IMG/VR virus record: IMGVR_UViG_3300032431_000003
Coordinates: 13,926-77,925 of that record
DNA from: a virus
DNA: 64,000 nucleotides
Direction: 5' to 3' (one strand)
Below are positions 37,150-63,389 of this stretch, one piece after another. Numbering within the stretch: the stretch's first letter is position 1; each line of letters starts with the position of its first letter. The notes beneath the pieces were generated by a model. It saw nothing but the letters and a program-made list of their open reading frames with translations, was not told the DNA's origin and made no database searches. The translations under genes were made by a program, and so were the position numbers.

Positions 37150-38295
37150 CTAAGCAGCCCTCCGTGCAAATAACAATTTAGGATTAGGGATTACTGGCAA
37201 CATTGTCGCAACGCCTTGAGTGGCATCACGAGGAGGGAACTTAGTAACTTCTCTAGTGACCACAAAGGGACCAGGGGCTCCTTCGTTTTCTAGGGTTGGA
37301 CCCATAGCTTGTTCGCCCATGCCTTGAGTCAAGAAGACGTAACGATCTGGGTTGAAGAAGCGCATTTTCCCACCACCATTAGGCAGGTTGTACATTTCAT
37401 CACAGATAATAATTGGGGGTAAGCCCATGTCTTCAAAGAGACGATCAAGCATGAGGTTGGAAACCACTCCCACATTGGAGACAACGACAGACGCTGCGGA
37501 GTTGGAGATCGAAGAGAATGAACGCTTCGTGGACTCTTGATTTCGCAAGTGAAGCCGCAACTTGTGGGACATGAGAATTGCCGTAGGCATGTAGCCGTTA
37601 GTGTCTCGGAAGACCTCTACGTCATTCTCTAAGTTTTGCAATCCATCGGCAGTGACGTATTGATTCCACGCTTGAGGAGTCGCAGTCAGATCGGGTGGAA
37701 AGTGAGCAAATTTGCCATTAGGGGCATAGCCATAGGTGGCATCGGCATCACGGTAGTCCAAGGGCAATCGAACACTGGTTCGAGTATCTTCGTAATTGAC
37801 GAAGCCAAACTGGACTGCTTGAGCCGCAATTAGATAATTAAGGTCAGTCAAGGCTCGTGCCATGTCAGCAATAGTGCCAAACAAGTAATCAGCCAAGGTG
37901 GAGTTAGCACCGGGGATGACTGCTCCATTGGGCAATACTTGTGACTGAACAGTTAGCCCTTTAGCCGAAGCCTTCTCAAGGGCTTCACGCATTTGCCATT
38001 GACGTTCTTCGGGGTAGTCAAAGGAAAGCCCAGCCTTGAATAGATCACCAGTAATCTTGTTGAATTTACCAACTTGAGTGGTTGGTAGTTCCGCACCATA
38101 GGCAACTAAGGAAGCCACTGGGCTTACCTTGTCCACCACGTAGGCGAGGAAGTCCCGCGTATCATACATTCGTGGAGGTAAGAAAGCATCAAGAGCCCGT
38201 TTTCGCTGATTAAGATAGTGGAGAGTGTCGTCCACCATAATGTTCGCTTCGGCAGCTTGTTGCTGTTCACTTAACCAGCTTGCAATTTGTCCCAT
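37150..38295 (-). CDS. major capsid protein (lambda gpE-like, HK97 fold)
   Basis: 381 aa; FLPP, ASLVAYGAE, PTAILMS, FFNPDRYVFL and ATMLPVIPNP motifs; GGAGG RBS. Confidence 0.85.
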   Translation of the reverse strand: MGQIASWLSEQQQAAEANIMVDDTLHYLNQRKRALDAFLPPRMYDTRDFLAYVVDKVSPVASLVAYGAELPTTQVGKFNKITGDLFKAGLSFDYPEERQWQMREALEKASAKGLTVQSQVLPNGAVIPGANSTLADYLFGTIADMARALTDLNYLIAAQAVQFGFVNYEDTRTSVRLPLDYRDADATYGYAPNGKFAHFPPDLTATPQAWNQYVTADGLQNLENDVEVFRDTNGYMPTAILMSHKLRLHLRNQESTKRSFSSISNSAASVVVSNVGVVSNLMLDRLFEDMGLPPIIICDEMYNLPNGGGKMRFFNPDRYVFLTQGMGEQAMGPTLENEGAPGPFVVTREVTKFPPRDATQGVATMLPVIPNPKLLFARRAA

Positions 38296-43904: not shown

Positions 43905-44837
43905 TTATCTAGCCCTCCGTCCCGAAGCCCTCTTCAGTATTTTGGCAAAATTAGCCAATTTACCTGCATTGGCGGACATCTTTGCTTGAGACAAGTCTTG
44001 CTGCCTTGTGACGTAGCTAGGGTCTTGCATCCCACTCATTCCTGGGTAGCCATCGGGGGCATCTTCGCCACCATCTAATCCCAAGAGTTCAGCGAGACGA
44101 TCCGAGAGACCACCAATGGCATCTTCGACAAGCATCGCTGGGTCTTCGCCCATCAAGGTTGATTCGTCTGCCTGAGAAATACAGGTAACAATCTCCCAGA
44201 ATTTCTCAGTGATTTCTTCGTACTGTTCCTTGAGTTCGTCGATTTGGGTTTGCTCCTCTTCTGCATCATCCCAAGTCAGCGAAAAACGAGCATCACTGTT
44301 GTGCTGCCTGAAAATACTCAGTCCAACAATGGCTGGCTGAGGAGTTGCCGAGATTTCCTTGATAGTATTCGTAGCTACATCGATACCGGGAGAAAGAGTC
44401 TTGATTCTTCCCGACATTACCTGAGCTACAATATCTTCGCCCTTGGCTACTAACTGCCCAAAAGCTCCCAACTTACCGACCAGCTTTCTTAGTCGGGGAT
44501 TAGGAAGGTCATTTTCAGTAATGATGCGGATTTCCAACTCGCCTTCTAAGTCACCAATGTTGGCACTCTGAGTCTTGTCGTGGTCTTTTTGCCAAGGGAT
44601 TCTGCCGCCAGCCCGAAGGAAGGCATTGGTTTTCTCAACTAAATCACGAAGTCTTTCTTGGGAGAAGGTGTGGGGTCGCTTCTGGGAGTCGTGGTGATTG
44701 CCTTCAATCATCAGCAAGGCTTCCTTGATTAGAACACCGTCTTCTTGGTCTTCTTCGGCAAAGCTGGCGGGAGTAAGCCCCAGTCCAAATGGGGAAAGAA
44801 ATTCTAGTCGTTTTGACCGAGGTTTTGGTTTGGGCAT
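43905..44837 (-). CDS. prohead maturation protease (Mu gpI-like) with acidic C-terminal domain
   Basis: IPWQKDHD..ANIG (His), IKTLSPGI (Ser) and ISATPQPAIVGL motifs of herpes/U35-fold phage proteases. Confidence 0.75.
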   Translation of the reverse strand: MPKPKPRSKRLEFLSPFGLGLTPASFAEEDQEDGVLIKEALLMIEGNHHDSQKRPHTFSQERLRDLVEKTNAFLRAGGRIPWQKDHDKTQSANIGDLEGELEIRIITENDLPNPRLRKLVGKLGAFGQLVAKGEDIVAQVMSGRIKTLSPGIDVATNTIKEISATPQPAIVGLSIFRQHNSDARFSLTWDDAEEEQTQIDELKEQYEEITEKFWEIVTCISQADESTLMGEDPAMLVEDAIGGLSDRLAELLGLDGGEDAPDGYPGMSGMQDPSYVTRQQDLSQAKMSANAGKLANFAKILKRASGRRAR

Positions 44838-44949: not shown

Positions 44950-45180
44950 CTACTTCATCCGAGGTTTGGAAAGGTGCTTGAGAGTGCCTAGCCGAGGAAT
45001 AACTCGACGATAGGAATTGGGTATCTTGGGCAAAGTATTCTTCGCTCTCGTCGCTGCCTTGCCTAGTTTCCTGAGACGACCTCGAATATGCCCTGTCTTT
45101 TGGAGCTTTGTCATCCCCGTTGGCATCTGAAGCTCTGCGTATTTCGTTGCAAACTCAATGAGACTATTGTAGTGATTCAT
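44950..45180 (-). CDS. small basic protein with IEF leader
   Basis: MNHYNSLIEF|ATKY..., K/R-rich remainder. Confidence 0.65.
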   Translation of the reverse strand: MNHYNSLIEFATKYAELQMPTGMTKLQKTGHIRGRLRKLGKAATRAKNTLPKIPNSYRRVIPRLGTLKHLSKPRMK

Positions 45181-45239
45181 GGCTAAGCCCTTGCAGAGCG
45201 TATATTATGATAGTTGATATAAAAAACCCTTGATTTTCC

Positions 45240-45707
45240 ATGACACAGAAAACTGCAACTCGACGAGGTAAATTTGGACGACCCAACGGGATTAGTCATA
45301 ACAGCTTTCTTGCCCTACTTCGACTTGAATCGAGGATTAGTCAGAAAGAAGTTGCCATAGCAACCCACGTCTCGCAGCCCCTGGTTAGCAATATCGAGAA
45401 AGGGAAAACCCCAGCAGACATATTATACTTATACAGACTAGCTGAACTTTATGCCGTTCCATCCTTCGGTGAATTTTGTGAGAAGTACCTCCAAGACCTC
45501 ATTAGCCACCTTTCGCCGCAGTCTATCAAGGCAGCATCGGCGAAATATCAGTCAATCTCTCCGGCGCAGGGGAATCATGAGCAGCAAAAACCCAGCCCGA
45601 CCCCATCTGAGACCGAGGGCAGTCAGATTGACGAACGGCTCAATTCTGATAATCAAGCCCAGACCCCTTTAATAAAGAATGAAGACCTTCACCCCGCTAT
45701 TTTCTAA
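45240..45707 (+). CDS. XRE-family HTH transcriptional regulator
   Basis: LRLESRISQKEVAIATHVSQPLVSNIEKGKTP...LAELY. Confidence 0.85.
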   Translation: MTQKTATRRGKFGRPNGISHNSFLALLRLESRISQKEVAIATHVSQPLVSNIEKGKTPADILYLYRLAELYAVPSFGEFCEKYLQDLISHLSPQSIKAASAKYQSISPAQGNHEQQKPSPTPSETEGSQIDERLNSDNQAQTPLIKNEDLHPAIF

Positions 45708-46665
45708 GCTACCAATTCCTTGCGCCCTGATTAACGAAGACAACGTAGTCACTATGGCTTCCGAAGCAGCTATAGAAATAGGATATTGTATTGGCAAAAA
45801 GATTGAGTCAGACTGGCTCGACAACTTTAACAACTTAAAAGAGACTAAAGGGAGGCTAGAGGTCTTTTGCAGCCAAAACTGGTGGCTCGTTCAATTAGAA
45901 AGAGTCGAAAAGGGGGTGGTGCTTATTGCCACGAACATCTCAAAGGAGAAGTCGTTAATCGAGGTACTAGAGTCGAGGAATCAAAAGCAGACCGATCTGG
46001 GTCGTCAAATATTCCATCACGATGCCATTACATTCCTTAACGGTATTGACTTTTGGGTAGAAGAGGCATCTGACTCATCCCCCGACAATAATGCAATAAA
46101 AAGAATAGGCAGCATATCCCTAGAGCTTCGGAATTTGATGGAAGGAAGTTCATATCTTTATGGGGCAGGAAAAACTCCTCTGAGAGCATTGGTTCTCAAG
46201 GAGTTGGTTGAGCATGTACTGGAAATACTGGAACCTCGCATCAAGGAGAAGGAAGCAATTGTAACAGTGGAAGGTAATGGAACTATTGTTTGGGGTGATA
46301 CGAATCGACTAGGGCGAGTACTGATGAATCTGATCTCTAATGCACTTAATTATCAACCTCTCAGGAAATCTCATATCCCAGTCGTAAAAATATCAATAAA
46401 GCCAGAGTCAGAGCAGGGGCTTGTTACCTTAGAGGTGGAGGACAACGGAATTGGTGTGTCAGCAGAGTATCAAGAGCGGATATTCTCTCCGCTATCAAGG
46501 CTGCACGGGAGTCAGGATTACCCAGGTTCAGGGCTGGGGCTGGCTATTGTGGAACGGATTATATTGGAACACAATGGAAGTGTAGGAGTATCCAGTGAAG
46601 GAGACGGATCAACATTTTGGATTAAAATACCAGGGCATCAGGCACGTTCTGCTAGTAGAGGATGA
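45679..46665 (+). CDS. sensor histidine kinase (degenerate PAS-like N-terminus, HisKA-like, HATPase_c)
   Basis: H box FHHD; N box VLMNLISNALNY; G1 VEDNGIGV; F box RIFSPLSRLH; G2 YPGSGLGLAIV. Confidence 0.9.
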   Translation: MKTFTPLFSKLPIPCALINEDNVVTMASEAAIEIGYCIGKKIESDWLDNFNNLKETKGRLEVFCSQNWWLVQLERVEKGVVLIATNISKEKSLIEVLESRNQKQTDLGRQIFHHDAITFLNGIDFWVEEASDSSPDNNAIKRIGSISLELRNLMEGSSYLYGAGKTPLRALVLKELVEHVLEILEPRIKEKEAIVTVEGNGTIVWGDTNRLGRVLMNLISNALNYQPLRKSHIPVVKISIKPESEQGLVTLEVEDNGIGVSAEYQERIFSPLSRLHGSQDYPGSGLGLAIVERIILEHNGSVGVSSEGDGSTFWIKIPGHQARSASRG

Positions 46666-47062
46666 CTTGAGTGCAACTGAGATGGTTCGAGTTATTTTTG
46701 CAAGAATGCAGAATAGTTCAACGATCAACACCGTTCAACACTATGCACTCTGGGAAATAAACAATGGGAAAAGTGCCGTGCAGACTCTCAGGGAGATGCC
46801 TTTCGATCTAATACTTCTAGACATCTCGCTACCCATTATGTCTGGGTTTGAGGTCTTAACTCTTGTTAGGGCAATGCACATTTATACTCCAATATTTATG
46901 TTTTCCTCGTCAAGCAATACCTTGGATGTTCACAAGGCATACGATCTGGGAGCCAATGGATTCATATTAAAATCCGAAGGAAGAAGGCAAATAGAACTTC
47001 GCATAAGGGCTGTTTGTGACTGTTATTTTAATTACTTACTACTGCCATGCCCTCTATATTGA
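46595..47062 (+). CDS. single-domain response regulator (Rcp1-like)
   Basis: VLLVEDD, DLILLDISLP..SGFEVL, FSSS and AYDLGANGFILK; GTG start with AGGAG RBS. Confidence 0.9.
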   Translation: MKETDQHFGLKYQGIRHVLLVEDDLSATEMVRVIFARMQNSSTINTVQHYALWEINNGKSAVQTLREMPFDLILLDISLPIMSGFEVLTLVRAMHIYTPIFMFSSSSNTLDVHKAYDLGANGFILKSEGRRQIELRIRAVCDCYFNYLLLPCPLY

Positions 47063-48147
47063 TTATCGATGACACCCCCGAAAACTGTGAAGCTCTAGCG
47101 ATGAATCTCGATGCCCTGGGTATGTCCAGTGAATCAAGGATAGTCGCTTACTCAATAGACAAAGGGCTGGAAGCCATTCAAGAGTTCCCCAGTATTCGGA
47201 CTATTTTGCTTGATCTTCGATTGCCGGGGATAAAGATGGGCGAAGTAGTCGGCAAGGTGCAGGAAGTGTTGGAATTGTGTGGAAATACTAAGGCAGTCAT
47301 CATTCCCATCTCAGTAGGATCAACGAACCCTTCCGTTGTCAATACCACGGAAATCGCTAATTCTATAACAGGCCCAAAAGCGTTGTCGAAAGTGCTGCAA
47401 ATAGCCGACAACCATGTAGAGCAGAACATATCAAGGGAAGATAGGGAGGACATTCGAGGTGGGGCAACAAGGCTAGAGGGAAAGGTTGAGAAGATAGAAG
47501 CAATGCTCTTGGCTTTCAAGGAAGAAAACAGGGAGTTAAAACTTGAATTAAAGGAAGTCAAGTCCGTCTTGCTTGCGCTCAAGATGGTAGTAGATGATCC
47601 CCTACTTCTATGGAAGCTAATCCTTCGACACCCCGCAATTCAAGTAGCCGTAATAGCAATTGTTATCAGCAATATGGATTCAATGTTCGAGGCGTGGCAG
47701 AAAGCCAAGAAACTTTGGGACTCAGGGGCAGAAAACACTAGCCATCTGTCTCGCAATGTTGTCGCCCAGTCCTTCAAAGAGCCTACCGTCGTCGAGTCCA
47801 ATGACCAAAAACCCAACCTCGCAATTTACCGCAGCAACTCCACTTTCTTGCAGGGCTCCATCAACAATGGTGATTGGCGCAATCCGACTTCCCCGCTCTC
47901 CAGTTGTAATCTTGGCTGGATCGACAAGGATAAAGCGAGTGTCGGACAGAAATATCCGAACCTCGCCACTACCCTGAGCACACGATGCCATGTATTCATT
48001 GGGTACTTGGGAGCCAACAAGAGAAAGCAGCCTACCTCGATAACCTACGAGTCTTGCTTCCGAGCTTGGGGCGACCCTCCGCATCTGATCTACGATACCG
48101 ACGGCTCCTGTCCAGTTTTGGGAGCAAACGGCGACCTGAAGGCGTGA
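47047..48147 (+). CDS. receiver-domain protein with coiled coil and hydrophobic helix; C-terminal ~140 aa antisense to another gene
   Basis: ILIIDD and ILLDLRLPG motifs; coiled coil; IQVAVIAIVIS segment. Confidence 0.7.
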   Translation: MPSILIIDDTPENCEALAMNLDALGMSSESRIVAYSIDKGLEAIQEFPSIRTILLDLRLPGIKMGEVVGKVQEVLELCGNTKAVIIPISVGSTNPSVVNTTEIANSITGPKALSKVLQIADNHVEQNISREDREDIRGGATRLEGKVEKIEAMLLAFKEENRELKLELKEVKSVLLALKMVVDDPLLLWKLILRHPAIQVAVIAIVISNMDSMFEAWQKAKKLWDSGAENTSHLSRNVVAQSFKEPTVVESNDQKPNLAIYRSNSTFLQGSINNGDWRNPTSPLSSCNLGWIDKDKASVGQKYPNLATTLSTRCHVFIGYLGANKRKQPTSITYESCFRAWGDPPHLIYDTDGSCPVLGANGDLKA

Positions 48148-48198
48148 ATTTAGATTCGACGTGTTGATCGATGCGAGTAAAACTAGCTCTGGAATCAT
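47722..48198 (-). CDS. hypothetical protein of cyanobacterial type
   Basis: LQVAVCSQNW..AVGIVDQM...P....L.GYRGRL helical motif recalled from cyanobacterial hypothetical proteins. Confidence 0.55.
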   Translation of the reverse strand: MIPELVLLASINTSNLNSRLQVAVCSQNWTGAVGIVDQMRRVAPSSEARLVGYRGRLLSLVGSQVPNEYMASCAQGSGEVRIFLSDTRFILVDPAKITTGERGSRIAPITIVDGALQESGVAAVNCEVGFLVIGLDDGRLFEGLGDNIARQMASVFCP

Positions 48199-51100
48199 GG
48201 GGAATGGTGAATGTGGCTAAGGTTTTTCTGACCAAGAACTGAGAGAGTCGATCACTTTGGGAGAATCCGATCTGGAGTAACCCAAGCTCTATTGATTCTA
48301 ACTCAGTCCGCCGCCGACCAAGGAGAACTCGGACACCAGAGTAGTTCTTCTCCGAAACGTTGAGTGGACTATCCACTTCGTCAATGCCCAGTATCCCTCT
48401 TAGCTCCGCCAAGGGCTTGCCCAACCTCGCTTCCGCCGCAGGGATTCCTCCTCGAAAACGATCAGGGTTGTCAACGTAGCGGGGATTCGACAAGGTGATT
48501 CTAGAGGGAAAGGATAGTCCAGCCGCAGTGTCTTCGGTTACGGACACGTCAACTTGGAAGCCCGTCTTTACTCGAATGTCTTCAACCTTGCTCAAGACTT
48601 TACCCCAAGCCTTGCCTCGAAGTCCTTCAAGTCTATTAACTTCGGCTATGGCTTTGTTTCGAGCAAAGAACAGTTCCAGTCCACCGCTTCTTTGAGCCGC
48701 AACGACAACATCGATCTCTCCTTGAGTTAACCTCTGAATATATTCATGCTCCGCAGAAGTAAGTTGACCACCCGATACGTGCTTATTGATAATTCCAAGG
48801 GCGGACTTTTGATTCACAGAAGTCAATAATCCCCTATGAGCCAAGGAGGTAACTGTGTTTCGGTCTTGGCTAACCAGGCTACTTGCCTTTGTAGCCGACC
48901 TTGCCTGAGCTATGTTTTCCTTGAGTTCCGCCGTAGTCTTCGCTACCCCGCCAATGCTGACGGGCTTGGCTATCTCTGCTTCAATCAACCGTTTAGCCTC
49001 TTGAAGCTCAGTAATAGTCTGGCTTGATTTAGCCAAGTAAGTAGCTTGCTTCTTCTTGATCTCATTGCGAATCTCTGGCGCAACTTCGGTGTAGTAGTTC
49101 AGATGAGCGTCCCTCAGTCCCGTGGTCTGAATTGTCCCATCAGGTCTCCTGACTCCTTCGAGCCCTTTCTCAATCTTGGCAGCGTAATCATCGAAAGCTT
49201 TTAGTCCTGCCTGCTGGTTAGCAATCTCTTGAGCAAGAGCGGTGTCTGCCTTCTCTAGTAGTGGAGCAAGGTTCCTAGTCTTGGTGTCGTAATCAATGAC
49301 CCTTTCTAAAGTAGGGATTGCCCCGACCTTTGTGACAACTCCATTGACTACTACTTCTTTTTCCAGCTTGTTTCTGACGCTCTCGAAGATGCGCCTACGA
49401 AAGGCGGCGGCACTCTCCGCACCGATAGCAGACTTACCTGCCGAGCCAAGTCCAGCAATGATTTCTGGATCGTTGATCGTATCAATGACTCTTTGCATGT
49501 TACGAAACACGTAGTCAGCCCCTTCTGGTCCAGAGACAAGACTGAGCAAAGAAAGATTGTCGTTAACGGTTTTCTGGGCTGAAGACAAACCCATCGTTGC
49601 GGTTCTCTCAATGCCGGACAATTCCTCCTGGAATAAAGTCGTCCCATCCGTTCGGGGACGAAACTTGTCAAGAACTGTCTCAGCGTTGGAATTAACTCGA
49701 ACCCCTTCACTCTTCGCTAGCTCCCGGAGATTCTCTAGCGGCGGACTGATCCTCTGAAGAGCAACGTTTCTTTGCTTGTCATCCCCAAAAGTCTGCTTGT
49801 ACCTCTTGGACTGGAGGGCAGACAAGTCACCTTTTTTCTTTGGCAATTTCTGTAAATCTTTCAGCATTGCCTTTAGTTGATCTCTCGAATTAGCTAAACG
49901 AGCCAATGTATCTGGCTGATTTGCTCTAGCCAAGCGAGAAATAGCTGCCTCAGTGGCCGCTAATTGAGAGTTGATACTTTGAACTAATGGAACGTCATCT
50001 AGCGAGGGAATACCGAAATCATTATTGCCAGAAGCCCTGATCTGCGCCCTGACCTCGCCAAGCTGAGAGTTCATTGCTCTCTGTTGCTCAGGGGTAAATT
50101 TAGCCAATTCCGCAGAAGTTAGCCCAAAAGCGGGTAACTCTAGCTGGCTTCCCGCCTCACCCAACTGGGTCTTGAGTCGATGAACTCGTCCCTGGACTTC
50201 TGGCGTGTTGATCAGTTCAGAGTATTCTTTGACCACCCCGTTACGGATAGCCAATAACTGATCCCTTTTTACTTCCATCTCTCTTTGCCTTACCGATGCT
50301 GCCGACTCAGGAATTCCGCCTCGTCCGGGTCTAGGATCGGGAACGAAGGAGTCTTTGAGTTGCTTGTCAATATCGGAGATTTCCTTGGACAACCGAGCAA
50401 TATCTTTTTGGTAGGCGGGGGAGAGTACGTCCACGGGCACAAGGTCTCCGGTCTGCGAACCCAATGCTTCGGCGTAGCTAGCCTTAATTTTCTCCGCTTT
50501 CGTTGCCAATTCAACGACCGTATCTTGAGTAGTGTTAGCTAACCTACTAAGCCTCTCGGCAATAGCCTGTTGTCCTCGTGCAACTTTGATAGCAGCGTTT
50601 GCCTTGGTCTGAGCAGGTCGAGTATTTAATCTACTTCCGGGAACGCTCACCGCACTACCAAAGACTCTGGATTGTAAATCGGTCTTAAGCTGATCCACCT
50701 CCGTCAATACTTGCTGTTGAGCAGAAAGAGCTTGCCGAGTCTTTACGGGGAGCATTCTACTGATATCAGCCCTTTTTAGATCGCTTTGGGGAGTGATGGC
50801 TCCAATAGCAGCTTCCCCTAGGAGACCTGAAACATTGCTGACGATGGTTCCGGGGTCGGCAATCTTTGACCTTAGAGTCGATTCAAAGATTTGCTGTACC
50901 GTGCGCTGAGGAACTGTAACAGCCTTAGATGGCTCAAGGAATGACAGTTCTCTTGGGTCTAAAAGGATAGGTTTTACGGGCAGGGATATCGATGATTCTG
51001 TTTTTGGTGTTTCGGATACTTTCTCTACAAAAGCTCGGACTAAAGCATCGAAAGCTGGGTTCCCGATATCTTTTCCCGTAGCAGCTAAACGATCCCGCAT

Positions 51101-53380
51101 TACTTGCATCCCTTCCCACTCCCCGTCTTTGTGGGCTTCCACGATTCTCCGAGCAATAGCCATCGAAACCCCTGCTCGATCAGAGATTTCCTTGGCGGCT
51201 CTCTCTGTGGGACCTTCGACAGCGATGAGTTCGTTGATGTTGATCCGAGCTAGTTGCCCACCCTTGACAATCCGGTCAACCGTCTTCGGTCCAACCCCCT
51301 TGATGGATCGAAGCATTTCAGTCAGTTCTTCCTTGGTCTTTGGTGGAGTCCGTGATATTAGTTGGACAATGCTTTGAGCCAAGGATTCTTTATTGGTACT
51401 CCCTGCTGGAAGTAGTCCAAGCCAATCGGATTGCCCCATCTGGCTTACTTCAAGTCCGCCAATCTCGACCTCTCCTCGCTCAGGGATGGCTAGTTTTGCT
51501 CGAAGTTGTCTTCTAATGTAATCATCTAAAGCATTCCCCTTCTCCCTTGACCCAGTGATTCCAATGAGTTGATCAAGGGAGAGTTGGCGGACATCGGGGT
51601 ACTGCATTAGTTCTGGATACAGTCGAAGCAAGCTGTCGGGAAGGAGCCTTTGGGCTGGAGCTACCTGAGACAAGGGTGCTGTCATTCGCTGCTGAAAAGC
51701 CTTCATCTCCTTTCTCAAGGTTTGAACTTGCCATTGAGTCAGTCCGTGAACTTTCTGTAACTGACCGTCAGTTACTCCATTCAGGTTCACGTTCTGAGTG
51801 GCTAGTCGGTAGAAAGAAGGCTGCTCTTGTAGCTTCAAGGAGATGACGCTGGAGGACATCGGGGGAATCTTTGCTGCCACTGATGCTCTTTCGGACTGAG
51901 TTTCCTTCTCTCTGAGGTATTCAACTGCCTTGCTCAATGCTTCGGACTCAATGCCCTGAGCAACATTGCTACCTATGTCAGAGATACCGGGGATACCGGA
52001 GCCCTGGGGTTCCCCGGACGACCTTGACTTCATCTCTTTGCTGAACTCATTGAGTAACAAGTAAAGCCCACCTAGCCCCAAGGTAACTCCGGCTCCTATG
52101 GTGAGTGCCTTGATTAGCATTGCTCTCCGAGACCTCGCTGCCAACATCTCGGCTCGTCTAGCTTGGACTGCGGCAACTCCAGCTTGAATCCCTGCGTTAA
52201 TTCCGCCTCTTATCCCAGCCTGAATGCCAAGACCAATACCCACTCCTAGAAGTGCCCTGCTTTTAGTCCATGCCTGAGCGATAGGAGATACCTTGGCTCT
52301 TGCGGGGTCTAAGTTGGGGTCTTTGTCGTCCTCACGATCTCGGTTGTCGTTGTCATCAACGGGTTCAAAGTGGCATCGACAATGGGGATGAGCGGGAATG
52401 ATGAACTGGCTAGCATCGAAGCGATTGTTGCCTTGAGCTAAGAGTTCATTAATATTTAAGATCATTCCATTCCTGTCGCCACAGATAGCGCAAGCTCCTC
52501 TATCCAAGTTCACCCAGCGAACTTTTCTGACATCGGCTTGAAGATAAGTATTGAGTCGCCCCATTGAATAAGCTGCCGATAATTCAGTCGAAGCAATTCT
52601 TCGGGCTGCGGAGGAAGCACGGAACTGTCGATCAGATATCTCCTTGGAAGTCTCAGGATCGATCTTCTCCTTGCTTCTCTCCATGTTCCCGTAATCTCTC
52701 ATGCCAATGGGATCGACGGCGTATCTAATCTCATCGAATAACTGCTTCTTGGCAAGCTCCGGCATCCCCTTGTCTGTTCGATGTCTCTGGATCGACTTAT
52801 TTATAGAGGTGATGACTTGGGATTGGACACCGCCCTCGTAGCCCCTTGCTACAGCCTGTCCTCTGGCTATAACGGCTTCACTAAGCACAGAGCGAGACAA
52901 GGGCATCCCGTAGTTTGGTGGATAAACTACCATGAAAGGATTACTCTTTGCCTTGACAGTTCGAGCCGATACAGGGTCTTTCTCTTCTAGAGTAGAACTG
53001 TCTTCTCCGGCAAATTCTGCTCTTGACCTTTGCTTCGAGACTCTCTGTTGCAAAGTGTTCAACTCCCGTGTGGCATCCGATGAACCCACACTCCACATTT
53101 CTCTCCATCCCGCATAGATAAGCTCCTCCACTCCACTCCCCACTCGCCAAGGAACAGCAGCAATAGCTTCAGGAGTAGCCTTGTCTAACATTGGAGCGAT
53201 CTTCTTGAGATAAGCCTTGGTTTCTTTACCAGCCAATTCATCGACACTCCGAGATAGCCAGTTCTCCCAGTAGTCGTGCTGCTCATGGATGGTTTGAGAT
53301 GGCAAAATTGTTCTGGGTAAAGAATTGTCTTTCGTGGCAAAGTTAGAGATAATAGGAGAGAAAACGGAATCAAAAGCCAT
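48032..53380 (-). CDS. giant MuF/SPP1 gp7-family minor head protein with TM, helix-hairpin-helix and coiled-coil extension
   Basis: RRIASTELSAAYSMGR...VRW...ACAIC..RNG...PAHPHCRC (MuF); hydrophobic segments; LRSIKGVGPKTVDRIV (HhH); start uncertain (53380, 53416 or 53443). Confidence 0.8.
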   Translation of the reverse strand: MAFDSVFSPIISNFATKDNSLPRTILPSQTIHEQHDYWENWLSRSVDELAGKETKAYLKKIAPMLDKATPEAIAAVPWRVGSGVEELIYAGWREMWSVGSSDATRELNTLQQRVSKQRSRAEFAGEDSSTLEEKDPVSARTVKAKSNPFMVVYPPNYGMPLSRSVLSEAVIARGQAVARGYEGGVQSQVITSINKSIQRHRTDKGMPELAKKQLFDEIRYAVDPIGMRDYGNMERSKEKIDPETSKEISDRQFRASSAARRIASTELSAAYSMGRLNTYLQADVRKVRWVNLDRGACAICGDRNGMILNINELLAQGNNRFDASQFIIPAHPHCRCHFEPVDDNDNRDREDDKDPNLDPARAKVSPIAQAWTKSRALLGVGIGLGIQAGIRGGINAGIQAGVAAVQARRAEMLAARSRRAMLIKALTIGAGVTLGLGGLYLLLNEFSKEMKSRSSGEPQGSGIPGISDIGSNVAQGIESEALSKAVEYLREKETQSERASVAAKIPPMSSSVISLKLQEQPSFYRLATQNVNLNGVTDGQLQKVHGLTQWQVQTLRKEMKAFQQRMTAPLSQVAPAQRLLPDSLLRLYPELMQYPDVRQLSLDQLIGITGSREKGNALDDYIRRQLRAKLAIPERGEVEIGGLEVSQMGQSDWLGLLPAGSTNKESLAQSIVQLISRTPPKTKEELTEMLRSIKGVGPKTVDRIVKGGQLARININELIAVEGPTERAAKEISDRAGVSMAIARRIVEAHKDGEWEGMQVMRDRLAATGKDIGNPAFDALVRAFVEKVSETPKTESSISLPVKPILLDPRELSFLEPSKAVTVPQRTVQQIFESTLRSKIADPGTIVSNVSGLLGEAAIGAITPQSDLKRADISRMLPVKTRQALSAQQQVLTEVDQLKTDLQSRVFGSAVSVPGSRLNTRPAQTKANAAIKVARGQQAIAERLSRLANTTQDTVVELATKAEKIKASYAEALGSQTGDLVPVDVLSPAYQKDIARLSKEISDIDKQLKDSFVPDPRPGRGGIPESAASVRQREMEVKRDQLLAIRNGVVKEYSELINTPEVQGRVHRLKTQLGEAGSQLELPAFGLTSAELAKFTPEQQRAMNSQLGEVRAQIRASGNNDFGIPSLDDVPLVQSINSQLAATEAAISRLARANQPDTLARLANSRDQLKAMLKDLQKLPKKKGDLSALQSKRYKQTFGDDKQRNVALQRISPPLENLRELAKSEGVRVNSNAETVLDKFRPRTDGTTLFQEELSGIERTATMGLSSAQKTVNDNLSLLSLVSGPEGADYVFRNMQRVIDTINDPEIIAGLGSAGKSAIGAESAAAFRRRIFESVRNKLEKEVVVNGVVTKVGAIPTLERVIDYDTKTRNLAPLLEKADTALAQEIANQQAGLKAFDDYAAKIEKGLEGVRRPDGTIQTTGLRDAHLNYYTEVAPEIRNEIKKKQATYLAKSSQTITELQEAKRLIEAEIAKPVSIGGVAKTTAELKENIAQARSATKASSLVSQDRNTVTSLAHRGLLTSVNQKSALGIINKHVSGGQLTSAEHEYIQRLTQGEIDVVVAAQRSGGLELFFARNKAIAEVNRLEGLRGKAWGKVLSKVEDIRVKTGFQVDVSVTEDTAAGLSFPSRITLSNPRYVDNPDRFRGGIPAAEARLGKPLAELRGILGIDEVDSPLNVSEKNYSGVRVLLGRRRTELESIELGLLQIGFSQSDRLSQFLVRKTLATFTIPHDSRASFTRIDQHVESKFTPSGRRLLPKLDRSRRYRRSDAEGRPKLGSKTRRLSR

Positions 53381-53837
53381 GACCATAAAATCTGCTACCG
53401 GGACTCCTAGCCGCATGAGTAGTACGGGGATTGCTACAAACATAACAACTACCCACAGTTATCTTAACGAGATTATGGAACTACTGATAAACAACGAGTT
53501 CTATCGCAATGAAGACATTCCTTGCCGAACAACGACAACAACTTCTAGTTACGATGCCAGCGATCCAACAACTTCGATCAATGGCACAATCTTGCAACTA
53601 ATTATCGTTGATGGGACAACGGGAACTCCGGCTCCCTTGGTAACAAGAACAATGACTATTACTTATAATTCCGACTCTGAAGTTCGAGGATTTGCAAAGC
53701 TGGCTATAGCTGACCTTGCCACTCTACCAGTCAACTCCACTGTCACCCTAGAATACCGAGTGTGGGCTACCTTTCCCGGATCAGTCCGTAATCTTGTAGA
53801 GCGAGGCACGTTTAAGTCTAAGCCAGCATTGCTCTAA
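53379..53837 (+). CDS. BppU-like beta-rich hypothetical protein
   Basis: EFYRNED...LEYRVWATFP...LVERGTF; start either 53379 or 53475. Confidence 0.55.
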   Translation: MTIKSATGTPSRMSSTGIATNITTTHSYLNEIMELLINNEFYRNEDIPCRTTTTTSSYDASDPTTSINGTILQLIIVDGTTGTPAPLVTRTMTITYNSDSEVRGFAKLAIADLATLPVNSTVTLEYRVWATFPGSVRNLVERGTFKSKPALL

Positions 53838-54286
53838 ACAACGAATAGATCAACTCCCCGTACCGACTCTGTGCCAGCAACTTCCTGAAGGAGTCCCTGA
53901 GTCACCCGAAGTGTCCTTCCTTTTAGGTGGAATATTGCCATCTTCCACTCGTCGTTAGCTTCGCTGTGTAACTTGTCGATAGCAAAAGGCACATTGACTA
54001 TCTTTGGCTTTAGCCTTGTCCTGTCGGCAATTACGGTGAATTCCGATGCCGACAGTAGGCATAAGCACTCTCCAATCAAAGAGTAAAGCTCAATGGTCTC
54101 TGGGAGGAGCTGAGTTCTCCACGCTAGATCAATGATTTGAGGCAACAAATGAAGCCTGCCTTCGATCTGGACAAGGAGAGTTAGCGCAGAAAAGTCAAGG
54201 ATTGTCACGGATCGAGCGGTGTTAATCAATGCCAATTCTTCAAAGCTGATAGCTGTCTGATCTGGAGCTAGAACGAACTGCCTCAT
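53834..54286 (-). CDS. hypothetical protein
   Basis: ATGA coupling to the FtsK-like gene. Confidence 0.6.
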   Translation of the reverse strand: MRQFVLAPDQTAISFEELALINTARSVTILDFSALTLLVQIEGRLHLLPQIIDLAWRTQLLPETIELYSLIGECLCLLSASEFTVIADRTRLKPKIVNVPFAIDKLHSEANDEWKMAIFHLKGRTLRVTQGLLQEVAGTESVRGVDLFVV

Positions 54287-55767
54287 GATTTCTCTCTCTT
54301 TGTATTTATGTCTTTAGTATAATTAATTGCTTGTTCTGCGTTGACAAACAGCGACTGACAGCGTTGATCCTCTCCGGCAGCACGGAATACCAAGTCCCCC
54401 TTGCCTAGTAACTTGTGAGCGGGGAAGTCGTTGTCACCCAAGATAATCTTTGTATTTACTATGTCTCTCATCTTTAGGGCAACAATAGCCGGAAGATTAT
54501 TGCGAAGCAAGCCGGAGACAACATCTACTGAAGGTCGCTGAGTGCATAGAATCAACGTAATTCCAGCAGCCCTTCCCTTAGCGGCAATACTGGTTACTAA
54601 GCTATTGATACGAGCAGCTTCGGCTTTGTAGGCTTTTTGGTCTTCTTCATCGCCTTCTTCGAGGATCATCAGGTCTGCGTATTCATCAATGATAACGATG
54701 TCCCAAGGCAATGGCTCGTCATCATTACTCTCGTTATAGATAGCGACACTTGCCCGTCTAGCTTCGGCACAGATTGTCATCTTCTCTGGATAAGTATTTG
54801 ATACAGTCTTCTCCAAGAAAGTCAGAGCTTCCGGCTTGTTTGTAATAACTCGTGCATTGATCGGACTTTGACTAAGCCAACCAAAATCAGGAGACTGCCC
54901 AGCAACCTTGAAGTCAATGACGGTTAATCGATACTGAGCGGGATTGTATCTAGAGAGAGAAGCAACGGCTTGAGTTAGCCAAACGCTCTTACCCCCACCA
55001 GTAGTGGCTCCTACTAGCCAGTGGCAATATCTCTCGTCGGTGACAGGCACGGAAATCAACTTACCATCGACTCCAATGCCTACGGGGATTTCAATGTGTC
55101 CATCCTTGGGCTTGTCGCAGTAATCTTTGAGTAATGGAATTGTCCATTGATCTTCGGGGAGCGTTATGTCAATAGCTAAGTGACCCGGATGAGTCGTAAT
55201 TATAGGCAGCTTGACATTCAAACGAATCATAAAATCTTCGTCATAGTGGGATATTGTCTTGACCCTAGTTCCGATAGTTGCTGGGGCAAATTTAAGCCGA
55301 ACAAACTTCGGTGACTGAGCATAGTCAATGAAGTCTAGGCTATTCTTGCCTTCTCTGGCAACAATGAGTTGGATATCCACCACCCAGTCTTCAATGCAAG
55401 CGGGGGTTTCTTTTTCCTTGATAGTAAAGGGCTTCCATCCTTTCTTTCGGGCTAGAGCCACTAATTCTGTTCTGAAGCTGGGATTCTTTGAGATCGTTGA
55501 AAGACCAAAGAGACTTGCCCCGTCAAGGTGTCCCACAGAAGCTCTCAGAGCCTCAAGGTCTTCTTCGGTGGGTTGATAAGTTGTGCTTTCTTGCTTAACT
55601 ACAAACATAAATAAATCGTTAATATCTTCAATGGCATTAATTACTTCTTTCTGGGTAAATTGTCTTTTCAAAGTTGGACGAATCTGAAGAGACTTTTGAT
55701 CGAGTAAAGCCCTGGCAAATTGCCGGAGCCAAGGGAATGTTGTTAGCAGAAGTCTAGAGGTCATCAT
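54283..55767 (-). CDS. FtsK/SpoIIIE-family DNA translocase ATPase
   Basis: Walker A HWLVGATTGGGKS, IDFK, Walker B IVIIDEYADL, GRAAGITLILCTQRPS, LLGKGD; start reassigned to MMTSR. Confidence 0.9.
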   Translation of the reverse strand: MMTSRLLLTTFPWLRQFARALLDQKSLQIRPTLKRQFTQKEVINAIEDINDLFMFVVKQESTTYQPTEEDLEALRASVGHLDGASLFGLSTISKNPSFRTELVALARKKGWKPFTIKEKETPACIEDWVVDIQLIVAREGKNSLDFIDYAQSPKFVRLKFAPATIGTRVKTISHYDEDFMIRLNVKLPIITTHPGHLAIDITLPEDQWTIPLLKDYCDKPKDGHIEIPVGIGVDGKLISVPVTDERYCHWLVGATTGGGKSVWLTQAVASLSRYNPAQYRLTVIDFKVAGQSPDFGWLSQSPINARVITNKPEALTFLEKTVSNTYPEKMTICAEARRASVAIYNESNDDEPLPWDIVIIDEYADLMILEEGDEEDQKAYKAEAARINSLVTSIAAKGRAAGITLILCTQRPSVDVVSGLLRNNLPAIVALKMRDIVNTKIILGDNDFPAHKLLGKGDLVFRAAGEDQRCQSLFVNAEQAINYTKDINTKREKS

Positions 55768-56081
55768 TTTTGTCTCCAGTTCCTCTTGAAGAACATGATG
55801 GTGGGATAAAGCAAGACAATAGTTCCCCACACAATGAGCATCAAGCATTGTAAGGCGTAATAAAAGAACAAAGCAGTAGCTCTGAACCACCAGTAGTTTC
55901 CTTTGATCGGATGCCAGTGTTGCTGGTTTTTGGCGATGGTCTCTTGGCAGTGACGACACAGAGTTACCGCATTGACCCCCAAGATAGGCTTTGCCCCCGG
56001 AGTGAAGCAATGAGTCACTTGGGGGCGATGAGTCGGGTCAAGGGCGCAGACATCGAAGATACTATTTCGTCTGTTGTTCAT
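55764..56081 (-). CDS. degenerate HNH/Zn-like domain fused to a membrane segment
   Basis: C...H...GVNAVTLCRHC, then a hydrophobic C-terminus; start at MNNRR. Confidence 0.5.
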   Translation of the reverse strand: MNNRRNSIFDVCALDPTHRPQVTHCFTPGAKPILGVNAVTLCRHCQETIAKNQQHWHPIKGNYWWFRATALFFYYALQCLMLIVWGTIVLLYPTIMFFKRNWRQK

Positions 56082-56877
56082 AGAAAGCTCTGAGGGTTTG
56101 GATAGGCTTAATTGGCTGGGAATAATGCTTCCCGTTCTGGGCGTTCTTGGGGAAGGAAGCCCAAGTCTTTGAGGACTTGAAGATTGCTTCCTCGAAGTTC
56201 CCAGCATCAACTAGGGGCAAGACACCAATCTGTTTGAGTAAGGCAATGGCGGCTTTGTCTTGATCGTCTGCACAGAATGTCTTGATTTCTGGGAAAGCCT
56301 TCTGGATGCCAGCAAAAGTGGTGGAAAGAAACTGATACTTTCCAGCAGCATCTGAGCCGTTGCGAACCCCATTGGACTGGGTAAAGCCAACGAGTCGCTC
56401 AGGGTGCTTATTGCAGTCCTGGAACTTCCCACCCCCAAAGTTAATGAAGTAACCATCTTTGCTGTAAGTTCCTTCGGCAAAGGCGATTGTGTTCAAGAAG
56501 GCTTTTCTTCTTGGAGTAACTTCGAGCCCAGAGGGTGACACTGAGGTCGCAGTAGCCGGAGCTTGGGTTTGCCAGTTGGTAGCAAACAAGACTACTAAGA
56601 TAGCCGTGGAAACAAGAGTCAGGTGATCAGACTTCAGCTTCTTGGATATAAATAGCAAGTAGAATGCCGAGAACACAATAGCCCCAGGTAATGCCCCGTA
56701 AGTCATCGCCTTGCCGCTGTCACCCTTGAGGTTCCATGCTTGGCATATTTGGGAGGCTACAGGAGGTAGCTTGCCGCATTCGTCCGAAGTTTTCCGCAAG
56801 TTAATCCCGCCAGCATAAACTCCTCCTGTTATCCCGCCCACCAATGCTGCTGTCAGTAATCCATAAAATTTATTCAT
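56062..56877 (-). CDS. membrane-anchored lambda R-like lysozyme/lytic transglycosylase
   Basis: AFLNTIAFAEGT, AAGKYQFL, QDKAAIALL and WASFP motifs; three N-terminal hydrophobic segments. Confidence 0.85.
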   Translation of the reverse strand: MNKFYGLLTAALVGGITGGVYAGGINLRKTSDECGKLPPVASQICQAWNLKGDSGKAMTYGALPGAIVFSAFYLLFISKKLKSDHLTLVSTAILVVLFATNWQTQAPATATSVSPSGLEVTPRRKAFLNTIAFAEGTYSKDGYFINFGGGKFQDCNKHPERLVGFTQSNGVRNGSDAAGKYQFLSTTFAGIQKAFPEIKTFCADDQDKAAIALLKQIGVLPLVDAGNFEEAIFKSSKTWASFPKNAQNGKHYSQPIKPIQTLRAFYEQQTK

Positions 56878-56924
56878 AAGGAAACCTTGGTAAGTTTGGA
56901 AACCCCGTCTCTTTAGAGCGGGGA
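56875..56924. repeat. dispersed ~50-bp element with CCCCG/CGGGG hairpin, copy 2
   Basis: aligns with 5415..5463. Confidence 0.7.
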
Positions 56925-56928
56925 TTCC

Positions 56929-57609
56929 TTACCTTTTTGGTAAATATTTTTCGGGGTCTTTGGGAATCGTGTTAACGAGGATTTCAAAATGCAAATGTGG
57001 ACCAGTTGAGTGTCCCGTAGAACCCACTTTGCCAATCACGTCAGACTGGCTGACTTCTTTACCAACAGAAGTAGTGATCTGAGACAGGTGGGCATACAGG
57101 GAACTGTAACCACCACCGTGATCAACAACAACCGTGAGTCCATAGCCACCCTGGGTTCCGACAAAAGTAACCTTGCCAGACTTTGTTGCCTTCACTGGAG
57201 TCCCGATGTCTGCTGGATAATCAAGCCCTGCATGGAGCTTCATCACGTTCTCAATAGGATGTAGCCTCATCCCAAACTTGCTATCTGATGGATCATCAAC
57301 TGGATGAATGAATCCTTGAGAACTCGCTGGAGCAGAGCTTGCCGTAGCTGCCGTGGCTGTCGAGGTGTTTCCGTGGATAAAAGACTTGATAGGCATTGAG
57401 ATCACTGGAACGGCTACGACAACAAGGGTAGCTAAGGCAATTCCAGAATGTACTCTTCGCTCCCACTTGCTTGAGGTCGTTGATTCCTTTGCTTGCTTTG
57501 GACTCTCCGCCTTCTCTGTCTTCTCTGTGATGCTGGGAGCTAGAACTCCTTTTATCTTCTCAACAATCTCTTCGGCTGCTGCTGAGTTTAAGTCAATCTT
57601 GATCTGCAT
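56929..57609 (-). CDS. membrane-anchored M23 family peptidase
   Basis: HAGLD, YAHLS and STGPHLHFE motifs; N-terminal TM helix; start at MQIKID. Confidence 0.9.
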   Translation of the reverse strand: MQIKIDLNSAAAEEIVEKIKGVLAPSITEKTEKAESPKQAKESTTSSKWERRVHSGIALATLVVVAVPVISMPIKSFIHGNTSTATAATASSAPASSQGFIHPVDDPSDSKFGMRLHPIENVMKLHAGLDYPADIGTPVKATKSGKVTFVGTQGGYGLTVVVDHGGGYSSLYAHLSQITTSVGKEVSQSDVIGKVGSTGHSTGPHLHFEILVNTIPKDPEKYLPKR

Positions 57610-57619
57610 ACGAACCCCG

Positions 57620-57835
57620 CTAGATGCACAAAGGATTTTTTCCGGTCTTGTCTGTAATAGTCTTGGCAAGGCTACCATCGGGAGGCGGTGGACAAGACTT
57701 TTCTTTTGGAGCTTCCTTGCTTGCCATGTCAGGAAACTTCGGCAGAGAGAATCGAAGAAAATCGGGGCTACTCAAGTTAAGTAACAGTATTGTTAACCCC
57801 AATAACGAGCAACCCCGAAGTACCCAGATGTTCAT
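57620..57835 (-). CDS. small membrane/exported protein
   Basis: hydrophobic N-terminus, 71 aa. Confidence 0.55.
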   Translation of the reverse strand: MNIWVLRGCSLLGLTILLLNLSSPDFLRFSLPKFPDMASKEAPKEKSCPPPPDGSLAKTITDKTGKNPLCI

Positions 57836-61521: not shown

Positions 61522-61848
61522 ATGCTTACCCTTGGAGACTTTTCAATTTCAGAATTCCGCCAGTTCGGGGCTAAGAACAAGCACAAAAAAATACCTGCCG
61601 TTCCGTTAAAGAAGACAGGCATCTTGGACAAGTGGAGAAAGAGGCTAAAAGGAAAACCAATGAAGGTGTACCTAAAAGGAACTGGAGGAAACAAAAGAAA
61701 GCTGTACTCCGTTGGTGGGCACTTGCGTAAAAGCCATTATGTTGTTGGCAGAACGGGATGGTATGGCAGTGGGGGAATGAATGAACTCAAAGGTACAGCT
61801 AAGCGTAGAGCAAGGAGAGTCCTTCGATCTCAGGGTGGAATACTTTAA
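61522..61848 (+). CDS. basic protein with ISEF leader
   Basis: AAGGAG RBS; MLTLGDFSISEF|RQFGAKNKHKK; TGTTAAAAT promoter at 61491. Confidence 0.7.
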   Translation: MLTLGDFSISEFRQFGAKNKHKKIPAVPLKKTGILDKWRKRLKGKPMKVYLKGTGGNKRKLYSVGGHLRKSHYVVGRTGWYGSGGMNELKGTAKRRARRVLRSQGGIL

Positions 61849-62471
61849 TGCGCCCATCTTGCCCTATAGTCTCGTGCATCAAGGTGGCACAGGTATGGGT
61901 GTCGAGAATACCTACCCAGCCCACCTGCCCAGATAGGATCAAGGAGAGCGTAGAGTTCATCGCCAGTCATTCCTTCAACCCAGAAGTCCATAGCATCGCC
62001 AGAGAGATGCCTGCTGTTGCTAGAACCCCCGGCATTGGCATTGGCTGATGGATTGCGATACCAACTGGTAATCACGAAGGGTTGTTTAATCAAGTCCCTT
62101 GCTTTTTGCGCTTCCGTAGCAATGCGAATCATCCCATCGTAAACTTCTCTCGTCTGAGGTAGTCTCTTCCCATCACGGGTAGCTTCAGCCCAAGTGAAAG
62201 CCCCGCCCTTGATGATCGAAGAAGCTAAGTCTACCTGGGAAAAGTCGGGGACAGCTTCGACTACCAACTGCTCGGAAGCATAGAGCTTAGACAGAGTTAG
62301 GGCTCCTACGATTCCATCGTTGTCAAGTCCATTACTTGACTGGAATCGCTTAACCGCCAACTCAGTGAGTAGTCCAAAGTCACCATCGTCAGAACCTCCT
62401 GGCAAAAGATTGAGTTCTATAAGTTTTGCTTGTAATTTTGTGACTGACAAGCCAACTGATCCTTTTCTCAT
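61845..62471 (-). CDS. endolysin: PG-binding domain + peptidase M15
   Basis: DGDFG..TELAVKRFQ..NGL..DGIVG; ITSWYR..N...GG...SRHLSGDAMD...HLDAR. Confidence 0.88.
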   Translation of the reverse strand: MRKGSVGLSVTKLQAKLIELNLLPGGSDDGDFGLLTELAVKRFQSSNGLDNDGIVGALTLSKLYASEQLVVEAVPDFSQVDLASSIIKGGAFTWAEATRDGKRLPQTREVYDGMIRIATEAQKARDLIKQPFVITSWYRNPSANANAGGSSNSRHLSGDAMDFWVEGMTGDELYALLDPIWAGGLGRYSRHPYLCHLDARDYRARWAH

Positions 62472-62644
62472 AAAAAACCCTCGGTTAGTTTAATTGAAAT
62501 AGCCAGAGCAACTGCTCCAAGCACAACCACGAAGAAACAAAGTATTCCTGCCATGAATACCCTGCCAGCATTGATCGCCTCTTGGATACACTCCGCCAGG
62601 ACGACCAACACTAGCAGTGCAACTAATAGCTGGAATTTATTCAT
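62468..62644 (-). CDS. putative holin (two TM helices)
   Basis: 58 aa with two hydrophobic helices, between two endolysin genes. Confidence 0.5.
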   Translation of the reverse strand: MNKFQLLVALLVLVVLAECIQEAINAGRVFMAGILCFFVVVLGAVALAISIKLTEGFL

Positions 62645-63389
62645 GGATGACTTCGCAGGCAATGGCATAATATTCTTCCCTTTCGGCTAAGCCCAAGGCT
62701 GGATCGGTTCCATTAACTCTACGGGAAACTTGTCGGCAGGTCGCCCCGGAATCAATGAAAGCGTTGATTTCGTTGTCATGCCACCAGAACCCCGACGGGA
62801 TAAATCGAGGTACGTCTTTCTTCACATACTCAATACCTTCCATTACCCTGGGGTCTTTAAGATAGTTGGAGAGCCTTCGGTAGTTATATCTGCCCGTAGT
62901 CTGAATTGGATCAAAACCCTTGAATCGCATCCCATCGCCTTCTTCAACGTTTCCTAGGTCTTCTCGTCCTTCGTAGGCAGAGCCGTCGGCTATCTCTTCA
63001 AAGTATCTCAAGCCACCGGACTCGTGGGCTATTTGGGCAAGGAAATGGCGTATCTGTGCCGGGGTGGAGATATTGAATACCTCCATTGAGCCGTTCAGCA
63101 TTACCAAGTCCTCTGGAGCTATTCTATTGTTGCAGATGAATTCAACTTGAAACTGAGTTAAAGGTAAGCAAGAAGTCTCTGCTCGACTTTTAATCAACGA
63201 CTGCAATGTCTTCGGTCCAACAATGCCATCTACGACTAATTCGTTGGACTCTTGGAAGCTTTTGACGGCGGAATCGGTGATTGCGCCAAAGTGTCCGTCG
63301 GGAAGACTAAGCAGTCCGGCAGAAGAAAGAGCTTGCTGAAGGAGGAATACTCTCCTCCCTGAATCGCCTCGTTTAAGAGTAAAGGGCAT
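62637..63389 (-). CDS. endolysin: PG-binding domain + glycoside hydrolase family 19
   Basis: LKRGDSG..V..LQ PG-binding domain; HFLAQIAHESGG, LGN, QTTGRYNY, SGFWW and RRVNG motifs. Confidence 0.88.
   Translation of the reverse strand: MPFTLKRGDSGRRVFLLQQALSSAGLLSLPDGHFGAITDSAVKSFQESNELVVDGIVGPKTLQSLIKSRAETSCLPLTQFQVEFICNNRIAPEDLVMLNGSMEVFNISTPAQIRHFLAQIAHESGGLRYFEEIADGSAYEGREDLGNVEEGDGMRFKGFDPIQTTGRYNYRRLSNYLKDPRVMEGIEYVKKDVPRFIPSGFWWHDNEINAFIDSGATCRQVSRRVNGTDPALGLAEREEYYAIACEVIHE

Follow-up and report, generated by a model that had tools for sequence, protein, structure and literature searches.

Results

A plus-strand signalling cassette inside the head module

The DNA analysed here, referred to as the window, is a stretch of 64,000 nucleotides comprising bases 13926-77925 of the linear IMG/VR virus record IMGVR_UViG_3300032431_000003 (77,925 bp, estimated to be 71% complete). 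Our subject is a cassette of four genes within it, encoding in this order an XRE-family regulator (XRE), a histidine kinase, a stand-alone CheY-like receiver (hereafter the receiver) and a longer receiver-like protein that we call REC2; the last three are referred to as the trio (Table 1). From ~21 kb to 63 kb of the window nearly every long open reading frame (ORF) lies on the minus strand, and in the ORF list these four overlapping ORFs are the sole plus-strand island of that block. Neighbouring genes of the cassette overlap by 29 nt (XRE/kinase), 71 nt (kinase/receiver) and 16 nt (receiver/REC2). An earlier note on this DNA, made from the letters alone, had described four overlapping plus-strand genes antisense within the head module, and the ORF list, the domain matches and the nature of the flanking genes agree with it; the end it gave for the fourth ORF, 47720, is mistaken, as the reading frame continues to the stop listed in Table 1. 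The GC content of the cassette is slightly lower than that of its flanks (43-46% versus 48-50%). For XRE, the kinase, the receiver and residues 1-198 of REC2, the annotated frame is the one selected by codon usage trained on the long genes of the phage.

A region of 59 nt separates the XRE gene from a minus-strand gene for a 76-aa basic protein, and it differs at one position from the corresponding region of L003, a relative from JGI whose kinase is 88% identical. A promoter and terminator scan of the cassette called no sigma-70-like promoter and no terminator on the plus strand, and a repeat search of the 59-nt region gave no convincing operator. Since no sigma-70-like plus-strand promoter was called in this region, we only infer that it serves as the promoter of the cassette.

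Table 1. Features of the cassette and its surroundings (window coordinates)
Feature	Position	Strand	Evidence
XRE-family helix-turn-helix (HTH) regulator, 155 aa	45240-45707	+	HTH_3, 34.9 bits
Soluble histidine kinase, 328 aa	45679-46665	+	HATPase_c, 89.3 bits
Stand-alone CheY-like receiver, 155 aa	46595-47062	+	Response_reg, 69.1 bits
REC2, 366 aa; putative receiver, coiled coil and hydrophobic helix	47047-48147	+	Response_reg, 18.8 bits (sub-cut-off)
Divergent intergenic region, 59 nt; presumed promoter/operator of the cassette	45181-45239	.	Sequence inspection
Flank: 1803-aa protein with MuF/SPP1-gp7 minor-head domain	48032-53443	-	phrog_115, 53.2 bits, aa 264-373
Flank: 310-aa head-module protein, weakly head-maturation-protease-like	43905-44837	-	phrog_976, E 0.003, 17.9 bits
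Major capsid gene	37150-38295	-	phrog_29, 82.8 bits

The kinase has a PAS-like sensor and an intact catalytic core

The AlphaFold2 model of the kinase, calculated from 11 family sequences (mean pLDDT, the predicted local distance difference test score, 78.8), comprises a PAS-like fold at residues 8-86 (pLDDT 85-89), the DHp helices at residues 88-133 and 138-158, and a catalytic ATP-binding (CA) domain at residues 169-319. The top whole-length matches of this model in Foldseek are WalK and the LOV-kinases YF1 and SB2F1, with which it has the order PAS-DHp-CA in common. For the cytoplasmic part of WalK and for YF1 (PDB 9a5d and 4gcz) the likeness of the PAS domain, the long DHp helix and the CA domain in that order is expressed in E-values of 1e-21 to 1e-22, whereas their identity to the kinase is only 15-18%, and the kinase differs further in its minimal PAS domain and in an H box without Pro. 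Pfam returned no GAF or PHY match to the kinase and the PAS-like domain carries no LOV-type, flavin or haem motif; the earlier note was thus right that a GAF-PHY sensor is missing, but the presence of the PAS-like domain means that the kinase is not without a sensor. No hydrophobic segment was found in the hydropathy profile of the kinase, which is therefore regarded as soluble. Conservation of the N-terminal motif PLxxKLPIP throughout the family supports the long kinase start at 45679.

The H box of the kinase, HHDAITFL, aligns with the canonical SHDLRTPL (SHDLxxPL), so that the phospho-acceptor is H114 within the motif HDAIT. H114 is invariant (11 of 11 family members), D115 is present in most members and replaced by Glu in two, and T118, at position H+4, is kept in the subclade of the window, where the H-box Pro is replaced by Phe. 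Distant members retain the canonical RHDLxxPLAT, including the Pro. The H box had been called atypical for its lack of Pro; the Pro has indeed been lost, but His114 and the HDxxT motif have been kept. In HisKA kinases, a Thr at H+4 goes with phosphatase activity. A HisKA-type phospho-acceptor His is thus present in the kinase, although the Pfam HisKA model gives no match to it or to its three close full-length relatives. Besides H114, residues N217, N221, D255, G257, G259, F269, G283, G285 and G287 are invariant in the 11 family members, and the N, G1, F and G2 boxes that mark a GHKL ATP-binding domain are all intact. Among solved structures, the kinase core is closest to the histidine-kinase domain of the bacteriophytochrome RpBphP2 (8f71; 92.8 bits, 34% identity), and the resemblance that had been seen in the signature RLH...YPGSGLGLAI is therefore real.

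The stand-alone receiver is a canonical receiver domain

The receiver starts with GTG, 6 nt downstream of AGGAG. With a Response_reg (PF00072) score well above the Pfam cut-off of 30.2 bits and all canonical residues present, namely the acidic E22, D23 and D24, the phospho-acceptor D76, S104 and K126, it is a member of this family. D76, S104 and K126 are invariant in the alignment of the receiver family, and E22-D24 are found in the five members that include the N-terminus.

The best solved relatives of the receiver are OmpR-family receivers (AdeR, 49.4 bits; MtrA, 47.3 bits), ahead of RcpA with 32.9 bits. The earlier note had likened both kinase and receiver to the Cph1/Rcp1 subfamily; this is only partly borne out, by the kinase core rather than by the receiver. 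The RpBphP2 kinase domain and RcpA (1k68) are like the proteins of the cassette in the RLH...Y(P)GSGLGLAI signature and in the single-domain receiver partner, and unlike them in that the bilin-binding GAF-PHY is absent here and that the receiver scores higher with the OmpR family than with RcpA. Membership in the Cph1/Rcp1 pair finds no support on either count, as the cassette has no PAS-GAF-PHY core and its receiver is not closest to the Rcp type. P0278, a 36% identical relative of the receiver, has an additional insertion and a tail with LP at its end; we take both features to be Rcp-like, and they may hint at a distant Rcp ancestry.

REC2 joins a degenerate receiver to a predicted coiled coil

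Residues 1 to ~130 of REC2 form a degenerate receiver in which D8, D9, D56 and S89 are kept, and residues 1-133 of its ESM Atlas model align to receivers. Residues 143-182 follow, as read from the sequence, an unbroken 3-4 heptad pattern over 40 residues (L, V, I, L, F, N, L, L, V, L, L, V) with Asn161 as the lone Asn, a pattern typical of dimeric coiled coils. A hydrophobic helix is predicted at residues 191-212 and is followed by a C-terminal extension of 150 aa, in which neither Pfam, nor AlphaFold2, nor an ESM Atlas search with residues 136-366 revealed a recognisable fold, family or killing domain. Neither of the two receiver proteins has a DNA-binding domain according to Pfam scans. The complex predicted for two copies of the kinase DHp-CA region and REC2 residues 1-135 scored 0.00, which gives no verdict either way.

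The REC2 ORF is open in two near relatives, with 362 and 327 aa. It converges with the MuF gene, and the 3' ends of the two genes overlap by 116 nt (48032-48147). The 327-aa relative stops almost exactly where the overlap with the MuF gene would begin.

The kinase represents a small family without a nameable cellular donor

A search of 5.8 billion protein clusters gave only three further sequences that are both full-length and close to the kinase (88%, 48% and 42% identity), and when 1.84 billion representatives were scanned exhaustively with HMMER, about eight full-length kinase clusters at 50% identity were retrieved. The receiver family is equally small, and for REC2 no more than two close relatives came up. 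From a pattern scan of 185,579 species genomes the best 80 matches were considered; they are proteins of many phyla that are 27-46% identical and mostly match only the ATP-binding end of the kinase; no full-length family member is found among these 80. In 401 Cyanobacteriota genomes, a profile search gave matches of up to 162 bits to the DHp-CA part, none of them covering the sensor domain. Because the cellular matches are so distant, mostly confined to the ATP-binding end and scattered over many phyla, no cellular donor can be named. Judged by these comparisons, the kinase belongs to an orphan lineage.

In phage records, kinase-like genes proved to be rare. A tblastn search with the kinase matched 23 of 50,697 GenBank phage records, in all cases by the ATPase domain only, and several of these records look like host contigs. 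In IMG/VR, profiles of the kinase, the receiver and REC2 all led to one and the same true relative, contig L002, while two further profile scans of IMG/VR yielded generic kinases or nothing; generic receivers and kinases do occur in some IMG/VR contigs. When IMG/VR was scanned with single proteins, namely the kinase, the 310-aa flank protein and the capsid protein, no match was obtained.

The trio is found in a second, unrelated phage

L002 is a contig of 38 kb that carries kinase, receiver and REC2 in identical order. Its kinase has 316 aa and is 38% identical to that of the window, its receiver 135 aa (49%) and its REC2 200 aa (29%), the last of these ending 15 residues past its hydrophobic helix. 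The 16-nt overlap between receiver and REC2 is the same in both phages, with LLPCPLY-stop lying over MPSILIIDD. In L002 the trio sits between the gene for the large terminase and a sigma-70-type gene, all on one strand. The protein encoded directly downstream of it, at 11958-12755, matches Sigma70_r2 with 34 bits. An all-against-all blastp comparison of the window record with L002 showed that they have almost nothing else in common. The same genes, in the same order and with the same overlap, thus occur in an unrelated phage whose trio has no XRE, which by sequence identifies the kinase-receiver-REC2 trio as the conserved unit, one that has moved between unrelated phages.

Almost the only other thing that the two phages have in common is a family of 180-240-aa proteins without a Pfam match, which are up to 56% identical and are multicopy in both. 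Copies lie at 7635-8300 and 189-875 in the window, at 13544-14077 in G000 and at 10145-11558 in L002.

The cassette is under purifying selection

L003 has the same XRE-kinase-receiver layout. Between the window and L003, the ratio of non-synonymous to synonymous substitution rates (dN/dS) is 0.14 for the kinase (328 codons, dS 0.43), 0.23 for the receiver (first 69 codons) and 0.26 for XRE. Contigs from three metagenome studies, compared over the cassette up to REC2, contain variants that are 88-92% identical, and their insertions and deletions are either a 3-nt insertion or compensated pairs of 1 nt. Such frame-preserving changes, along with the low dN/dS values and the trio of L002, contradict the idea that these are decaying host fragments absent from related phages, which the earlier note had named as what would speak against its proposal. 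That proposal, a phage-encoded two-component cassette that is apparently functional, stands on the intact motifs, the dN/dS values and the occurrence of the trio in a second viral contig.

The identity to L003 is not uniform. Over 45032-46816 it is 93-99% in the left flank and XRE and 83-89% from ~45780 onwards, within the kinase gene, which suggests a recombination boundary inside the cassette near 45780.

XRE is a lineage-specific addition

The HTH of XRE lies at residues 22-74 and is followed by a low-complexity C-terminal tail; the protein matches the repressor/regulator families phrog_3 and phrog_8. An XRE equivalent was looked for upstream of the trio in L002 and none was found. Since the second phage does without it, XRE is, on this comparison, a lineage-specific addition that lies outside the conserved core.

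Genomic surroundings

The 1803-aa MuF protein is unusually long, and its recognisable minor-head domain is confined to residues 264-378. The 310-aa flank protein has no Pfam match. Further along the minus strand, 54283-57678 encodes an FtsK/SpoIIIE-like ATPase (phrog_1358, 157 bits) and then two proteins with endolysin/metallo-endopeptidase matches, a set distinct from the endolysins at 61845-63428. The region 16149-19278 begins with a Mu-type portal gene (Portal_Mu, 50.9 bits), distant from the MuF and capsid genes; next comes the gene for a protein of 524 aa that has ThyX as its C-terminal half and ~300 N-terminal aa of no recognised function.

A blastn search against GenBank phages gave no match. 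The capsid protein is nearest, with 30% identity, to those of the Pseudanabaena phages Pam2 and PA-SR01. Cassette DNA is present in two sequencing runs of freshwater metagenomes and one of a sand metagenome, with no RNA run among them. The window phage may have a cyanobacterial host.

Discussion

A proposed mobile phosphorelay module with an output other than transcription

We consider it fairly probable that the cassette is a self-contained, mobile phage accessory module encoding a branched phosphorelay without DNA-binding output. The soluble kinase would sense a cytoplasmic cue through its minimal PAS-like domain and autophosphorylate on His114; its HDxxT motif suggests that it may act as a phosphatase as well. 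The phosphoryl group would be passed to Asp76 of the stand-alone receiver and probably also to Asp56 of REC2. REC2, in which a receiver-like head would be followed by a coiled coil that dimerises and, towards the C-terminus, by a hydrophobic helix, would then alter its assembly or its association with the membrane, and this change would be the output. The stand-alone receiver may serve as a diffusible partner or as a phosphate buffer. XRE, a repressor-type gene added at the front of the operon, would probably control transcription of the operon independently of the antisense late head operon. Tuning of the infection programme and a Detocs-like conflict system are the candidates for the purpose of the module.

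Several observations, most of them on REC2, weigh against this interpretation. In both phages REC2 lacks the conserved Lys at the beta5 position, and its Response_reg scores, that of the L002 homologue being 25.5 bits, stay below the cut-off and cover the first half of the model only, so that REC2 does not qualify as a PF00072 member. The AlphaFold2 model of REC2 is confident for four beta-alpha units only (residues 1-90, pLDDT 65-86). The hydrophobic helix is short and borderline, with a Kyte-Doolittle 19-residue mean of 1.63 compared with 1.8 for a core strand of the receiver; as a strand buried in the receiver reaches at least the same score, membrane insertion is plausible but not established. 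The coding status of the last 150 codons of REC2 is ambiguous as judged by codon usage, since a 158-aa minus-strand ORF antisense to the extension (47722-48198) scores slightly better there, with 0.133, than the REC2 frame, with 0.062. Finally, the genomic context of the trio was compared in two contexts only.

Comparison with Detocs

The known system that the trio most invites comparison with is Detocs, in which DtcA is the kinase, DtcB a stand-alone receiver that buffers leaky signal and DtcC a receiver-effector (bioRxiv 10.1101/2023.01.24.525353). A minority of Detocs effectors are transmembrane proteins, and the N-terminal sensor of DtcA is made of TPR repeats (bioRxiv 10.1101/2023.01.24.525353). 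The three-gene set of this description, a sensor kinase, a stand-alone receiver and a receiver fused to a C-terminal part that does not bind DNA, is seen in both of our phages, and both systems are modular and mobile. They differ in the sensor, which is a TPR domain in DtcA and a PAS-like domain of ~80 residues here; in the effector, as REC2 has no recognised killing domain such as a PNP, nuclease or hydrolase and instead a putative coiled coil, the borderline helix and a variable tail; and in that the module described here is phage-borne. In PADLOC, whose library may hold no Dtc profiles, the kinase and REC2 had no match and the receiver weakly matched PDC-M60B (23.5 bits) and PDC-M60C (12.3 bits).

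By this analogy we entertain, as a tentative suggestion, a role of the trio as a conflict module of Detocs-like design that is carried by phages. Its PAS kinase would then detect an infection-related change of the cytoplasm, for example a competing phage or the state reached late in infection, and the stand-alone receiver would buffer leaky signal. Phosphorylated REC2, with its coiled coil and presumed tail anchor, might assemble in the membrane and bring about superinfection exclusion or abortive infection, or act as a switch of lysis timing.

Alternative explanations

A classical transcriptional two-component system, the chief rival reading, which we regard as rather unlikely, would have the phospho-receiver or REC2 modulate XRE, or a sigma factor in other phages, and the phage programme, be it early/late timing or a choice resembling that between lysis and lysogeny, would follow host physiology. 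PAS kinases commonly report intracellular state. The arrangement of the window would suit such a system, as XRE opens the operon, overlaps the kinase start and is kept in the 88% relative L003, and so would the Sigma70_r2 protein encoded directly after the trio in L002. However, XRE is absent beside the L002 trio and no sigma factor is encoded in the window record, so that the regulator partner is not conserved. The 59-nt control region showed no conspicuous operator-like repeats. There is also no integrase or resolvase in the record, which leaves a role in lysis-lysogeny without support, with the reservation that the record is 71% complete.

We think it improbable that the cassette is a host-derived Cph1/Rcp1-type system that intercepts cyanobacterial light or nutrient signalling, either by phosphorylating host regulators or by draining host kinases through its receivers. 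The bacteriophytochrome domain 8f71 as the closest solved kinase core, the match of cyanobacterial kinases to the DHp-CA profile, the Pseudanabaena phages nearest to the capsid protein and the origin of the sequencing runs all point in this direction, as does P0278, if its likeness to Rcp1 is as presumed above. Set against them are a sensor without GAF, PHY or LOV-type motif, a receiver closer to solved OmpR-type proteins than to RcpA, and best cellular matches that are too distant, too partial and too widely spread over phyla to single out a donor. With no integrase or resolvase in the 71%-complete record, a cyanobacterial host no more than possible and XRE outside the conserved core, neither of the roles offered in the earlier note, interception of host light or nutrient signals and timing of lysis versus latency, finds support.

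That the genes are inactive or decaying passengers of host origin is disfavoured and, in our judgement, very improbable: the missing HisKA match, the sub-cut-off score of REC2 and the lower GC content of the cassette might be read in this way, but all catalytic motifs are intact, dN/dS is low and variation keeps the reading frame, codon usage in the annotated frames fits the phage, and the trio with its overlaps is conserved at 29-49% identity in an unrelated phage.

Significance

Two-component systems are the main sensing device of bacteria. A kinase with receivers of its own is rare in phage genomes, and no characterised case was found. Among reported phage kinases, an AgrC kinase is carried by the Clostridioides phage phiCDHM1 (PMC3901668), and pelagiphage kinases adjoin curli secretion genes (PMC9599517). 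These cases and ours are alike in that a histidine kinase is a phage accessory gene, whereas in the window the kinase is combined with two dedicated receivers in one overlapping operon. Phage phiCDHM1 is said to have no cognate receiver gene. From the reported phage kinases the module differs in the dedicated operon of a kinase plus two receivers, its orphan lineage, its occurrence in unrelated phages and an output that would not be a transcription factor.

By their size and solubility the proteins lend themselves to direct assays of phosphotransfer and toxicity. Because the trio is under purifying selection, is mobile and has no full-length relative among the best matches from the cellular genomes searched, phages appear to maintain a sensing pathway of their own whose output is not a transcription factor. 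If the Detocs-like reading were true, REC2 would represent a new effector type, and the trio would be the first system of this sort for which passage between unrelated phages has been shown. If the output lies at the membrane, it would provide a new coupling of a sensed state to lysis timing, the exclusion of rival phages or abortive infection, and it would extend the logic of Detocs to viruses.

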